From an uncultured Rickettsiales bacterium (GTDB lineage: Bacteria > Pseudomonadota > Alphaproteobacteria > Rickettsiales > SXRF01): a stretch of DNA of 64,000 nucleotides. Positions 44,657 to 49,155 of the stretch are shown one piece after another; positions within the stretch are counted from its first letter, which is position 1; each line of letters begins with the position of its first letter. The translations under genes were made by a program, and so were the position numbers. The DNA is taken from assembly GCA_964645205.1 (NCBI GenBank), contig CAZYBO010000005.1, forward strand, positions 69,789 through 133,788, given 5' to 3'. Under the pieces are notes generated by a model. The model was given only the letters and a program-made list of their open reading frames with translations, was not told the DNA's origin and made no database searches.

Positions 44657-45027
44657 TGTCATTCCTGCGAAAGCAGGAATCTTAATCTTGCCCTAAACCC
44701 AATCCTGTATTTCGTCGTACAAATCTTTCCATTCCGGATTCAGCTTTTCAATCAACTCTACTTTCCACTCCCGCTTCCAGCGCTTCAGGCATTTTTCGCG
44801 CTGAATAGCGCGGTCTACATAGTCGAAAACTTCAACATACACTAATTTTTTAATATGGTATTTCTTGCTATGCCCCTCTATCAATCCGTCCTTATGTTCC
44901 CTGACTCTTCTTACCAGATCCTTCGTCACTCCAATGTACAGTACGCCATATCTTTTGCTTGCCAGCACATACACATAGTATCTATGCGTTTTGCTCATTC
45001 AAGATCCCTGCTTTCGCAGGGATGACA
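44657..45027. mobile_element. GIY-YIG cassette A bracketed by inverted TGTC hairpins
   Basis: Arms at 44657-44682 (TGTCATTCCTGCGAAAGCAGGAATCT) and 45002-45027 (AGATCCCTGCTTTCGCAGGGATGACA). Mobility is inferred. Confidence 0.8.
44693..44998 (-). CDS. Short GIY-YIG nuclease (COG2827/YhbQ-like)
   Basis: YYVY..LYIGVT.DLVRR..EHK..AIQREK..KRW..LNPEW.DLY. Confidence 0.92.
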   Translation of the reverse strand: MSKTHRYYVYVLASKRYGVLYIGVTKDLVRRVREHKDGLIEGHSKKYHIKKLVYVEVFDYVDRAIQREKCLKRWKREWKVELIEKLNPEWKDLYDEIQDWV

Positions 45028-45047
45028 ACACAAAACCGTATCCATAC

Positions 45048-45212
45048 TCAATCCGCCCTAGGCCCCACGCCGCTATTGTAGCCCGCGTTGCCTTTCTGCT
45101 TACTCGCTTCCGCCCAGCAGCCTTTGAAATAGGCCTTGTCGCCGACCGACTCGCCTTCCTCCGGCATGCAGTAACAGCCCGACAGAAGCAGCACGAGCGC
45201 AAGCGCGCGCAT
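45048..45212 (-). CDS. 54-aa putative lipoprotein
   Basis: MRALALVLLLSG-C lipobox. ATG overlaps the pdhA TAA. Confidence 0.55.
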   Translation of the reverse strand: MRALALVLLLSGCYCMPEEGESVGDKAYFKGCWAEASKQKGNAGYNSGVGPRAD

Positions 45213-46234
45213 TATTCCACCACCACGTCCGTCCACAGCTCACCCTCGTCCGGTTCGGGGCTGGACTGTGCGAATTCCGCGGCTTCGTTGACGATAACTT
45301 TAATGTCCTTATCGATGTCCTTGAACGCATCCTCGTTGCCGAACCCCTGACGGATCATGTTGCCCTTCAGCCCTTCGATCGGGTCGCGCTGTTCCTTGTA
45401 CTGCTCCACCTCTTCCTTGCTGCGGTATTTCGCAGGGTCGGACATGGAGTGGCCGCGATAGCGGTAGGTTTTCATTTCCAGCAGGAATGGGCCGTTGCCC
45501 TCGCGCACATATTGCACCGCCTCACGCCCCGCTTCGCGCACGGCCAGCACGTCCATGCCGTTGACCTGCTTTCCGGGAATGCCGAAACCCTCGCCGCGGC
45601 GGAACAGTTCGGTGGTGGAGTGCGAGCGCTTCACGCTCGTGCCCATCGCGTATTCATTGTTTTCGATGATGTAGATCACCGGCAGTTTCCACAGGCTCGC
45701 CATGTTGAACGATTCGTATACCTGCCCCTGATTCACCGAGCCGTCGCCGAAATAGGTGAGGCTCAGGCAACCGTTGTTACGGTATTTATGCGCGAACGCG
45801 ATGCCGGTGCCGATGGGCACTTGCGCGCCGACGATGCCGTGGCCGCCGTAGAAATGTTTTTCCGTGGAGAACATGTGCATCGACCCGCCCTTGCCCTTGG
45901 AGAACCCGCCGATACGTCCGGTGAGTTCCGCCATGATGCCCTTGGGATCCATGCCGCAAGCGACCATGTGGCCGTGGTCGCGGTAGCTGGTGATGACGGC
46001 GTCGTTGGGCGTGATGCAATCTTGCATGCCGACGACCACCGCTTCCTGCCCGATATACAAATGGCAGAACCCGCCGATCAGCCCCATGCCGTAAAGCTGC
46101 CCGGCTTTTTCTTCAAAGCGGCGGATCAGCAGCATGTCGCGGTAGAGCTTGAACAGGAGTTCTTTGGAGACGGCGTTGGCGCCGCCTTTCTGGGCAGCGG
46201 TATTTTCGGGAAGTTTGCTCGCAGCTTTCGCCAT
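45212..46234 (-). CDS. pdhA: Pyruvate dehydrogenase E1 alpha
   Basis: GFCHLYIGQEA, GKGGSMH, FGDGSVNQGQVYE, TYRYRGHSMSDP. Confidence 0.97.
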   Translation of the reverse strand: MAKAASKLPENTAAQKGGANAVSKELLFKLYRDMLLIRRFEEKAGQLYGMGLIGGFCHLYIGQEAVVVGMQDCITPNDAVITSYRDHGHMVACGMDPKGIMAELTGRIGGFSKGKGGSMHMFSTEKHFYGGHGIVGAQVPIGTGIAFAHKYRNNGCLSLTYFGDGSVNQGQVYESFNMASLWKLPVIYIIENNEYAMGTSVKRSHSTTELFRRGEGFGIPGKQVNGMDVLAVREAGREAVQYVREGNGPFLLEMKTYRYRGHSMSDPAKYRSKEEVEQYKEQRDPIEGLKGNMIRQGFGNEDAFKDIDKDIKVIVNEAAEFAQSSPEPDEGELWTDVVVE

Positions 46235-46348
46235 GATCGCTCTCAAGGAAAGGGGTATGTGTGAGAGCTTTATAAACACTAAGAACGGGTGGTTATGCAA
46301 GCGTTTAATGCAGCATGCCTTGCTGCATTGCAGCGTAAGCGCGCGCCG

Positions 46349-46684
46349 TTACTGAGCCTGTTCGTTGAGGAAATACACCACCTCGTTTTTACCCGCCATG
46401 CCGAGCACCAGCCGCGCCTGCTCGTCGAGCAGGTCAAGGTCGAGCGAATCGCTACTCAGACCTTTCACTTTTTTCTCCAGCGCATCATGCTCGGCGTTCA
46501 CTTCCGCAAGCTCGGCTTTAAGCTGTTCCAACTTGCGCGTTTCCTTGAATAAAGCCACCACGCCGCGTTCGCCGCTGATCGCATGAAAACCGAGGTAAAA
46601 CAGCACCAGCACACACAAAAGCGATACGGCCGCCCGCTTAAAAAACGGTCGCCTTACTTCAGCATATGCCTGATTTCTTCTCAT
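46349..46684 (-). CDS. ftsB: Septum formation initiator FtsB/DivIC
   Basis: TM helix, YLGFHAISGERG, coiled coil, DLDLLDEQAR..LG. Lies upstream of pdhA. Confidence 0.85.
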   Translation of the reverse strand: MRRNQAYAEVRRPFFKRAAVSLLCVLVLFYLGFHAISGERGVVALFKETRKLEQLKAELAEVNAEHDALEKKVKGLSSDSLDLDLLDEQARLVLGMAGKNEVVYFLNEQAQ

Positions 46685-46765
46685 ATAGCCGCTTAATCTA
46701 CATAAAATTCAGGGATTTTGAAAGATAATTTAACAGTTGCGACTGGATTTATGCGCCCCATGCAG

Positions 46766-46781: not shown

Positions 46782-46793
46782 ATTAAGGGCTGT

Positions 46794-47225
46794 ATGGTCA
46801 TGGCTGAACGGTCGTTCGATATCGCAACCGCAATCGCAAACACCGCCGTGTTCGCGTTGATGCAACGCGCCGTCTTGCAATTAAAGTCAAGCGATGAGGA
46901 GCGTATCGGCGGGGAAACGTTCGCGTCTACCTGCAGGATCATCGCGGCGCATTTTCATCAGGCCTGCCAGAAACTTGCGGGCAACGGCAGAATCGATGTC
47001 GTAACCTTGCTGGAAAAAACGCAGGCGATTTTCACCGCGATGCCGGACTGGGCGCGGTTACAGCCGGAAATCACCTTGGGCGAAGCCAAAGCAGAAGCCA
47101 CACGCAGGCTGCATCTCAGGATGGAATTTACGGACAAGCCGACTGAGCAGGCCGCCGTCAAACTGGTCGAAGCGATTACCGAAGGCGTTTTCCGACAAGC
47201 GCAACCCTCGCGCTCACCGCGTTAG
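46794..47225 (+). CDS. Hypothetical protein
   Basis: 143-aa ORF filling the gap between ftsB and eno. No recognised motif. Confidence 0.6.
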
Positions 47226-48493
47226 AAAACCGATTTACCCGCGTACCGCGCCATGCTGCCGAGCTGTTCTTCGATGCGGATCAGCTCGTTATATTTCGCG
47301 GTGCGGTCGGCGCGCGAGAGCGAGCCGGTTTTGATCTGGCCGCAATTCGTGCCCACGGCGAGATGCGCGATGGTGGTGTCTTCCGTTTCACCCGAGCGGT
47401 GCGAGAGCACGGCGCTGTAACCGGCACGCTGCGCCATTTGCACGGCGTTGAGCGTTTCGGTGAGCGTGCCGATCTGGTTGACTTTCACCAGCAAGGCGTT
47501 CGCTAATCCGTCCTCAATACCCTTCGCTAAAATCGCGGGGTTCGTAACGAATAAATCGTCGCCCACCAGCTGCACACGGTCGCCCAGCGCATCGGTAATT
47601 TCTTTCCAGCCCATATGATCGTCCTCTGCCATCGCATCTTCGATGGAGACGATGGGGAAATGCGCCACGAGGTTTTCGTAATAGCGCAGCAATTTGCTGC
47701 TATCGAGCGTCTTGCCCTCACCTTTGAGCGTGTATTTGCCGTTACTGTAAAATTCGGTGGCGGCCGCATCCAGCGCCAGCACTACGTCTTTGCCCGGCTT
47801 GTAACCCGCGCCTTCGATCGCACGCACGATATAGGCCAGCGCGTCTTCCGCCTTGCCGATATTCGGCGCGAAGCCGCCTTCATCGCCGATACTGGTGCTC
47901 AGTCCGTCTTTCGCGAGACGCGCTTTCAGCTCGTGGAAAATTTCCGCGCCCATGCGCACGGCGTCGGCGATGCTCGATGCCGACACCGGCATGATCATGA
48001 ATTCCTGAATGTCGAGCGCATTATCCGCATGCTCGCCGCCGTTGATGATGTTCATCATCGGCACCGGCAGCGTATTCGCCGACACGCCGCCCACATAACG
48101 GAACAGCGGCATGTTCGCCGAGTCCGCCGCCGCTTTCGCCACGGCCAGCGACACGCCTAAAATCGCGTTCGCGCCGAGCTTCGATTTATTTTTCGTGCCG
48201 TCGAGCTCGATCATCGCTTCGTCGATCTTGATCTGATCTTCGGCATCCATGCCGAGCAGCGCGTCCGCGATCTCATTATTTACATGCGACACCGCTTTCA
48301 GCACGCCCTTGCCGCGATAGCGCTTTTTGTCGCCGTCGCGCAATTCAAGCGCCTCCAGCGAACCGGTGGACGCACCCGAGGGCACAGCCGCGCGACCCCA
48401 TGCGCCGTCCTCCAGCGCCACGTCTACTTCAATGGTCGGGTTGCCTCGGCTGTCGATAATTTCGCGGGCGTGGATATGTTCGATGGCTGTCAC
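47222..48493 (-). CDS. eno: Enolase
   Basis: [38 protein letters not shown]. Confidence 0.98.
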
Positions 48494-48602
48494 GGGATGC
48501 TCACTTAAATTTAATACAAATTAACAGTTGAAATTTCATGCTGGGCTACCGGCTGCACATAGGCTATACTGGCTAGAGTGTGACCTTGAACGGGAGTAGC
48601 GT

Positions 48603-49064
48603 ATGAGCATCTCTGTTGGCATGAAAGCACGCAAAAAGCAATCTTCTTTATCAGCCCCGCCCGAGGCGGGCAGCGCACCCCCGCTGGAGAAATCCATACT
48701 CGCGCTGGAAAGCGCCTGCCTGCGTATCCTCGAAAACCGCAACGCCACCGGTGTCCACGACACCGACCGGCTCTACTGGCAACAACGCCTGAAAAACATC
48801 GCCACCCCCGTATCGCTGGCGCTGCGCGAATGCCGCGGCCTGCGCCGCTTCCACAACCATTACCGCCACCGCGAGGACGACGAAGCCGTGCTGCGCCCCG
48901 TCATGGAACCCTGCCCCATCACCATGCTCGCACAGGTATGCGACCACGCGCTGGAAGCCTGCCGCTACGACCTGCTAGGCGTCCGCGACAACGGCCTCAA
49001 CAGCCAACGCCGCGCACTGGAAGCCGCGTTGCAGGGATTTTTGATACGGCAGAGGAAAGCGTAA
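48603..49064 (+). CDS. Hypothetical protein
   Basis: 153-aa ORF between eno and kdsA. No recognised motif. Confidence 0.55.
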   Translation: MSISVGMKARKKQSSLSAPPEAGSAPPLEKSILALESACLRILENRNATGVHDTDRLYWQQRLKNIATPVSLALRECRGLRRFHNHYRHREDDEAVLRPVMEPCPITMLAQVCDHALEACRYDLLGVRDNGLNSQRRALEAALQGFLIRQRKA

Positions 49065-49083
49065 AATAACCTGCTTTAACCTT

Positions 49084-49155
49084 TGTCATTCCTGCGAAAG
49101 CAGGAATCTTGGGTTTAGCCGAAAAGCATAGATTCCTGCTTTCGCAGGAATGACA
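49084..49155. repeat. Gene-less YGTC hairpin dimer (type A)
   Basis: TGTCATTCCTGCGAAAGCAGGAATCT-N20-AGATTCCTGCTTTCGCAGGAATGACA is a perfect 26-bp inverted repeat, identical to the left arm of cassette A. Confidence 0.95.

Follow-up and report, generated by a model that had tools for sequence, protein, structure and literature searches.

SsnA of Neisseria meningitidis (Chenal et al. 2025, Nat Commun 16:2388, PMC11893778) is a 94-aa single-domain GIY-YIG protein (cd10448, GIY-YIG_unchar_3) that binds the NTS sequence (CGTCATTCCCGCGMAVGCGGGAATCYRG), which contains the dRS3 repeat, only as single-stranded DNA (ssDNA) and on one strand only. It cuts a few nucleotides upstream of NTS, needs residues Y6, Y17 and E64, is without activity on double-stranded DNA or RNA, does not bind RNA, and modulates natural transformation. 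Chenal and colleagues further report that 42% of Ssn homologues have Ssn-related motifs (SRMs) on both flanks and that 29% have no nearby match to the SRM search string, they define NTSvar outside NTS, and the sole activity that they demonstrate for the family is cleavage of ssDNA and not strand transfer. Here we report three genes of this kind in an uncultured Rickettsiales bacterium (GTDB SXRF01, assembly GCA_964645205.1) and document the anatomy, distribution, covariation and synteny of one of them, cassette A, a GIY-YIG gene set between inverted hairpins. All three lie in one 64,000-nt stretch of contig CAZYBO010000005.1 (C5:69789-133788; hereafter the window, whose numbering we use throughout), in a 2.17-Mb genome that is 99% complete.

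The hairpins themselves recall a described class of repetitive extragenic palindromes (REPs). CGTC-tagged REPs, as defined by Di Nocera and colleagues (Di Nocera et al. 2013, BMC Genomics 14:522, PMC3733652), have a CGTC or TGTC tag, an 8-bp stem, a 4-nt loop and a CCA tail, occur mostly as HH dimers, and predominate in Alphaproteobacteria. Their family CGTC-1 includes Rickettsia RPE-6 and corresponds in Neisseria to dRS3, and the class was judged to be without a dedicated enzyme.

We assign cassette A to the Ssn/SRM system, of the NTS or dRS3 type, with a probability of roughly 0.87. Since the pairing of Ssn with NTS/dRS3-type motifs was published in 2025, the locus is a new example of a known system and not a new system.

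Cassette A and the Ssn system

Cassette A and a gene-less pair of the same hairpins about 4 kb away comprise the following features:

44656..44683, + strand: left arm of cassette A, an A-type Ssn-related hairpin unit (TTGTCATTCCTGCGAAAGCAGGAATCTT)
44693..44998, - strand: ssn paralog A, an intact 101-aa open reading frame (ORF) encoding a single-domain GIY-YIG protein
45001..45028, - strand: right arm of cassette A, an inverted copy of the left arm in which stem pair 3 is C-G instead of T-A
49083..49110, + strand: gene-less tags-outward (HH) dimer, left arm, with the master sequence of the family
49111..49129, no strand: spacer centre of that dimer, unique and present in no other dimer
49130..49156, - strand: right arm of the gene-less dimer, a perfect inverted copy over 27 nt

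The left arm consists of the tag TTGTCA, an 8-bp stem (44661-44668 with 44673-44680), the loop GAAA and the tail CTT. As ssDNA it is predicted to fold at -7.8 kcal/mol and the right arm at -8.6 kcal/mol (z -5.1 for both), and the gene lies 9 nt from one arm and 2 nt from the other. Inverted, the two arms match at 26 of 28 bases, and both mismatches are the two sides of a single stem pair (ATTCCTGC...GCAGGAAT versus ATCCCTGC...GCAGGGAT, T-A to C-G), as a preliminary description of this DNA had noticed. Because T-A/C-G is also the main polymorphism of the whole repeat family, this difference does not have to stem from two mutations at cassette A itself. The first arm of the gene-less dimer (49083-49156) equals the left arm of cassette A at 28 of 28 positions, and its second arm repeats it perfectly over 27 nt, so that the perfect inverted repeat reported in the same description is confirmed; a single 27-bp ssDNA hairpin formed by the entire dimer is also possible (-34.4 kcal/mol, z -13). 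The 20-nt arm core occurs four times in the window versus 0.02 expected (100 dinucleotide shuffles).

The protein resembles SsnA in length, domain content and putative active site. Searches with protein A returned the GIY-YIG family PF01541 (E 8e-15, residues 7-79 of 101) as the sole family clearly above cutoff, and no second domain was found. Homologues of protein A are present in 12 of 41 genomes of the genus Neisseria at 41-53% identity and E 1e-22 to 1e-30, all below the E < 1e-10 used as the homology threshold in PMC11893778. One of these homologues (L219) has 94 aa and carries Y6, Y17 and E64, the residues mutated in PMC11893778; they align with Y10, Y21 and E68 of protein A (101 aa), the predicted catalytic residues, and with Y7, Y18 and E65 of both protein B (108 aa) and protein C (107 aa), with spacings of 11 and 47 in every case. 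General resources describe the family poorly: NCBIfam returned no specific family for the Ssn proteins and sub-threshold matches only (TIGR01453, 21.7 bits against a cutoff of 56), and a sequence search of the PDB found no Ssn structure, its sole match being the UPF0213 protein 1zg2 (E 0.003). A catalogued defence system was considered and rejected, PADLOC giving only weak matches of the GIY-YIG domain to UzuA (E 3e-4 to 6e-3).

The arrangement of gene and hairpins is likewise that of the Ssn system. At five of six Neisseria loci examined, the gene has NTS units no more than 600 nt away, and several of these loci have pairs on both sides. Homologues of protein A at 47-70% identity occur in many phyla, and at most of 80 homologue loci inverted arms of the form TGTCAT-stem-loop-stem-ATC bracket the gene, the two arms often differing by compensated pairs. 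The present genome holds three genes of this GIY-YIG type, A, B and C, all in the window and within 14 kb, each bracketed by inverted tagged hairpins of its own type and each inside a housekeeping operon. All three cassettes have the architecture of NTS, namely a 5' YGTCA tag, a palindromic stem, a short loop and a C directly after the palindrome, and the main departures of the cassette A arms from CGTCATTCCCGCGMAVGCGGGAATCYRG are a T in place of C in the tag and T-A in place of C-G at one stem pair. As a side observation, at least 120 contigs, of Planctomycetota, Dehalococcoidia, Beta-, Gamma- and Deltaproteobacteria and other groups, contain the 28-nt Neisseria NTS without any mismatch (CGTCATTCCCGCGCAGGCGGGAATCCAG).

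Taken feature by feature, the locus thus shares with Ssn/SRM a GIY-YIG protein of one domain and about 94-108 aa whose Y, Y and E residues are conserved and equally spaced, a gene inside inverted tagged hairpins, a hairpin repeated tens of times per genome, an arm that is nearly NTS, and a repeat number that correlates with gene presence. It differs in its host, an uncultured alphaproteobacterium in which the system is known from sequence alone; in having three paralogs with three arm types within 14 kb, each in a housekeeping operon; and in its commonest arm, which has T-A where the SRM string permits only C-G, G-C or A-T.

By analogy with SsnA, the Ssn protein would bind, in a single-stranded DNA state, the hairpin formed by one strand of the repeat. 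It would read the 5' YGTCA tag, the 8-bp stem, the short loop and the C just after the palindrome, and would cut the hairpin-bearing strand 5' of the tag, at a distance of a few nucleotides; duplex DNA, RNA and the complementary strand would not be acted on. The likely effect would be cleavage of motif-bearing ssDNA, such as strands entering by transformation or conjugation and perhaps replication intermediates. The nuclease may also play a part in creating or turning over the repeats.

A genome-wide family of tagged hairpins

Searching the genome with the A-type pattern YGTCAT-YCCNGC-NNNN-GCNGGRAT, we found about 80 units at about 40 places. The count of dimers against singlets, suggested earlier as a check, gave 32 dimers among these places, every one of them with tags outward, and only one of 33 A-type brackets (cassette A) has a gene inside. 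Tag-anchored perfect hairpins number 86 against 12-14 in reversed-tag controls, and a backwards control pattern had no match in 41 genomes. The most frequent arm, which we call the master arm, begins 27 units (GTCATTCCTGCG). The two arms of a dimer are identical in 12 of 32 cases versus 2.6 expected, spacers measure 8-43 nt and their centres are unrelated among the 32 dimers, and no target-site duplications or direct repeats were seen at the dimer flanks (32 dimers). In two minimal dimers (C1:261453-261508 and C4:75899-75954) the spacer is an 8-nt palindrome (CCACGTGG) with the tails abutting, and the remaining dimers have spacers of 14-43 nt with unique centres. The only dimer cluster in the genome consists of four A-type dimers in 4.2 kb (C3:202790-206940), about 1.0-1.6 kb apart.

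These counts change the reading of the gene-less dimer in the window. Its identity to the left arm of cassette A had been taken as a sign of recent copying or conversion, a conclusion that does not survive the comparison: the dimer carries the family master arm, which is found in 27 units and forms both arms of at least eight other dimers, so recent copying from the cassette is unsupported. The pair at 49083-49156 is a potential substrate and not an offshoot of cassette A.

Covariation was tested on an ungapped alignment (A1) of 77 A-type units, over the 8-bp stem and against 500 shuffles. Paired cells made up 99.4% of the stem versus 88.3% in shuffled alignments, cells changed on both sides numbered 77 versus 27 expected, and the covariation score of 0.303 (versus 0.090) was reached by 0 of 500 shuffles; slid-partner controls, in which the 3' partners were shifted, were 22-50% paired. 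Stem position 3 is UA in 45 units, CG in 28 and GC in 4, stem position 6 is UA in 31, GC in 30, CG in 10 and AU in 3, and the at least eight stem haplotypes are nearly all fully paired. The excess of compensatory changes that was set beforehand as the check is therefore present. The proposed selection for hairpin structure is borne out in turn, two stem positions covarying through three to four pair types with almost no unpaired cells.

The resemblance of the core to Neisseria dRS3 (ATTCCC-N8-GGGAAT), which had been pointed out from the sequence, reflects true relatedness at the level of the class, given the placement of dRS3 in CGTC-1 (PMC3733652) and its inclusion in NTS (PMC11893778). The two share the palindrome core and, once dRS3 is extended to NTS, the flanking tag, and at least nine units here (ATTCCCGCG...GCGGGAAT) fit the literal dRS3 pattern, whereas the cassette arms ATTCCTGC and ATCCCTGC (ATTCCT... 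and ATCCCT...) fail it. Two traits of dRS3, its use as a phage integration target and its large mosaic clusters, were not seen here. With CGTC-1 REPs the 77 aligned units share the TGTC/CGTC tag, an 8-bp stem starting A-T, T-A, a 4-nt loop and a short tail, as well as their mainly tags-outward HH arrangement (mostly homodimers) and their occurrence in Alphaproteobacteria. Units of the ATCCCGGC subfamily have the tail CCA, those of the main subfamily here (ATTCCTGC) the tail CTT. They differ from CGTC-1 REPs as described in that they bracket a GIY-YIG gene, as in PMC11893778. An Rfam search gave only spurious matches of the dimer to microRNA precursors, far below gathering scores.

The REP/REPIN-RAYT systems offer a parallel in organisation. 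Both have short tagged palindromes as inverted doublets, a single-copy gene inside the same palindromes, an enzyme that recognises an ssDNA hairpin and a repeat number that correlates with gene presence. The enzyme here is GIY-YIG, not Y1 HUH, the tag is YGTC, not GTAG, and the doublet centres are unique, whereas REPINs are copied as whole units. We know of no covalent intermediate or joining activity in the Ssn family. RAYT (PF01797) is absent from this 99%-complete genome, in a search that detected the control families, and RAYT/REPIN was rejected as an explanation, the genome having no Y1 transposase and the tag not being GTAG. A literature search for GIY-YIG jointly with REP, REPIN or RAYT found nothing relevant under those names.

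Relatives and the question of mobility

We compared 40 relatives, all of other genera, with 0-135 A-type units and 0-8 Ssn genes per genome. Across them the number of A-type units follows the number of Ssn genes (Spearman 0.73, p 1e-7). The order pdhA-ssn-pdhB recurs in five other genomes of different genera (among them L001, G001, G009 and G021), in a sixth genome, from another family of the order (G037), ssn adjoins pdhB, and ssn C adjoins trpD and/or trpC in G001, G003, G008, G018 and G019. Between the present genome (G000), G001 and G009, gene A has saturated synonymous divergence (pS 0.81-0.91) and low non-synonymous divergence (pN 0.13-0.18), which implies long vertical descent under purifying selection. 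These data favour gene A as a long-term, selectively maintained resident of the pdhA-pdhB gap; being co-oriented with the pdh operon, it is probably transcribed with it.

The hairpins around the gene are less constant in their layout. At syntenic copies of gene A they form a simple bracket in the present genome and G021, the order (+)(-) gene (-) in G009, and in G001 a (+) unit, 680 bp with two small ORFs, a (-) unit, the gene and a (+)(-) pair; the order of gene A relative to a small lipoprotein gene also differs between genera. The 24-nt master arm is nonetheless identical in G001 despite saturated neutral divergence, so the arms must be constrained or homogenised. Cassette B is absent from G001, where kdsA abuts pyrG, and hence was gained or lost once. 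In G001 (L093), the A-type tags-outward pair at 3644-4368, beside the syntenic ssn gene, is a bracket whose cargo is not the nuclease: it surrounds about 680 bp that contain two small ORFs, and one of these has a lipoprotein-like signal. A BoxC/PIT-like repeat at 780-830 of L093 (CCCTCTCCCCTGCCCCTCTCCCTTCAAAGGGAGAGGGG) lies beside an A-type dimer downstream of pdhC.

Several points weigh against the assignment to the Ssn/SRM system. The published search string, HGTCWYN(0-2)YYVSBRHN(0-5)WNVSBRGN(0-2)RNCYNB (PMC11893778), has no match among the six arms of the three cassettes, and altering the palindrome in Neisseria while keeping the hairpin abolishes activity (PMC11893778), so that one enzyme may not serve all of the at least eight stem haplotypes here. 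In G031, which is 100% complete, 22 C-type and 10 A-type repeats but no Ssn gene were detected, so that the repeats there outlive the gene. Conversely, G001 lacks C-type repeats, and its orthologue of gene C is intact although the arms have decayed. Gene and repeats are not obligately linked, and each can persist alone. Moreover, the cleavage specificity of A, B and C is predicted from homologues that are about 50% identical, and an effect on natural transformation in this host would be carried over by analogy from Neisseria. N. lactamica NS19 has NTS and no Ssn homologue. Among the relatives, C-type repeats number 0-46 in genomes with a C-like orthologue and 14-22 in some without. No Ssn gene was detected in G011 (53 A-type units) or G017 (21 A-type, 14 C-type), both of them fragmented assemblies.

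As to the search string, the arms of cassette A miss it because its V and B positions exclude T and A at one stem pair, and other units in the genome match it 51 times, as against about 9.5 matches in Markov-shuffled genomes. Since the string serves as a heuristic for searching, we do not count the mismatch as failing a defining feature.

The preliminary description had cast the cassette and the gene-less dimers as an autonomous/non-autonomous pair. The layout, which resembles that of an insertion sequence (IS), fits this reading, and so does the correlation of repeat and gene number; for the gene it is weakened by a position fixed across genera at saturated pS, and no target-site duplication is visible at the dimer flanks. 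In its strong form, with the GIY-YIG protein actively moving the cassette that encodes it and also, in trans, dimers that lack a gene, as proposed for RAYT/REPIN, we regard the idea as unlikely. The authors of PMC11893778 themselves raised the IS-like layout and the RAYT/REP analogy. In favour of a mobile pair are the order arm, gene, inverted arm, the orientation of 32 of 32 dimers, which is that of the cassette, copy numbers of 0-135 among related genera that track Ssn gene number (rho 0.73), identical arms in 12 of 32 dimers versus 2.6 expected, one master sequence common to 27 units, and the presence of cassette B at a junction where G001 has none. Genes A and C, however, occupy fixed chromosomal positions across genera whose synonymous divergence is saturated, and the unique dimer centres argue that dimers are not copied as whole units. 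Spacers share no internal sequence, the dimers have no target-site duplications, inverted arms leave one cleavable site per strand per dimer with no joining activity known to us, and repeats occur without the gene (G031) and the gene without repeats (gene C of G001). Nor was presence/absence variation found: 12 of 12 Logan contigs, located by exact-protein look-up in five runs of one study, show 100% identity over cassette A, the dimer and cassette B, a sample of one population in which contigs drop rare variants.

Two readings would make the nuclease gene a bystander or an intruder. If the hairpins were REP-like host structures in RNA or DNA (mRNA 3' stabilisers, terminators or supercoiling sites) and the gene incidental, the covariation would fit an RNA stem equally well; three units are flagged on the tag strand by a scan for terminator-like signals, and many REPs have been argued to be transcribed (PMC3733652). 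Such a role would leave unexplained, as an RNA hairpin, the invariant non-palindromic tag and the orientation rule, and cognate arms flank Ssn genes at most of 80 loci across phyla and at three paralogs here. The terminator-like strand at cassette A is opposite to operon transcription, and SsnA does not bind RNA (PMC11893778), all of which makes this reading very unlikely. Still harder to credit is a free-standing GIY-YIG homing endonuclease inserted in a pre-existing REP dimer, with the gene-less dimers as uninvaded sites. The gene does occupy nearly all of its dimer, leaving gaps of 9 nt and 2 nt to the arms, and the single filled bracket among 33 would suit this view, but the 101-aa protein has a single domain and no DNA-binding module, its family cuts ssDNA only (PMC11893778), and relatives and Neisseria show dimer-gene-dimer arrangements, not a gene within a dimer. 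The dimer centres, each different and unique, offer no common homing site, and the position of the gene is conserved across genera.

Within the Ssn assignment, a more ambitious extension is worth stating, doubtful as we consider it. Ssn may be the enzyme so far missing for CGTC-class REPs, responsible for their creation and turnover, a single nick per strand at the outer edges of a tags-outward bracket allowing the host to replace, fill or empty the interior. Bracket turnover by Ssn would explain why arms are letter-perfect across genera while centres are unique, why layouts at the pdh locus differ (bracket, dimer-gene-dimer, bracket with 680 bp of other ORFs), why repeat number follows gene number and why small ORFs accumulate beside the sites. 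If true, it would amount to GIY-YIG-based DNA mobility or cassette exchange in bacteria, without a transposase.

Cassettes B and C and the interest of the locus

The other two cassettes, and a gene-less dimer of the third hairpin type, lie at the following positions:

50002..50040, + strand: left arm of cassette B, B-type (TCGTCAT, 8-bp outer and 5-bp inner stem; fold -12.9 kcal/mol)
50005..50331, - strand: ssn paralog B, GIY-YIG, 108 aa (PF01541 E 1.4e-12)
50339..50379, - strand: right arm of cassette B, with compensated changes relative to the left arm in the outer and inner stem
58278..58305, + strand: left arm of cassette C, a C-type unit (GTCATCCTGAGCGTAGCGAAGGATC)
58313..58636, + strand: ssn paralog C, GIY-YIG, 107 aa, between trpD and trpC
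58606..58632, - strand: right arm of cassette C, a C-type unit, inverted
42281..42356, no strand: gene-less C-type tags-outward dimer, just upstream of pdhC (E2)

The B-type hairpin has two copies in the genome, both around gene B, and the C-type (GTCATCCTGARCGNAGYGAAGGATC) about 43, with a compensated G-C/A-T inner pair of its own. The arms encode the C-terminal 10-13 residues of Ssn B (50005-50045) and Ssn C (58606-58636); as the stop codons lie in or just past the arm, arm sequence is predicted to be translated as the tail of the nuclease. The left arm of cassette B begins 5 nt past the kdsA start codon. The mechanically called kdsA ORF starts at 50008, inside this arm (CAT of GTCGTCAT), and alignment with G001 puts the true start at 49996, so automatic annotation may over-extend kdsA into the repeat (49993-50008).

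The pdh operon of this genome is unusually invaded. Its pdhA-pdhB interval holds a small lipoprotein gene besides cassette A, and its pdhB-pdhC gap (42281-43651) holds the C-type dimer and two small lipoprotein-like ORFs (42796-43248 and 43241-43651); the distance from pdhB to pdhC in G001 is only 16 bp. We ruled out that the C-type unit near pdhC occupies the same site as the A-type unit of G001, since the two are on opposite sides of pdhC.

The locus adds to the 2025 work on Ssn in several respects. The SRM string misses the commonest arm variant here, with T-A at one stem pair, so that SRM counts in some genomes would be underestimates. One small genome carries three paralogs, each with its own hairpin type (about 80, about 43 and 2 copies), and thereby provides a natural set for the study of enzyme-substrate specificity. 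Its Ssn genes are old and maintained at fixed spots in housekeeping operons while the surrounding hairpin layout changes, and gene and repeats are each able to persist without the other. These additions bear on the question of whether Ssn nucleases spread the repeats or only act on them.

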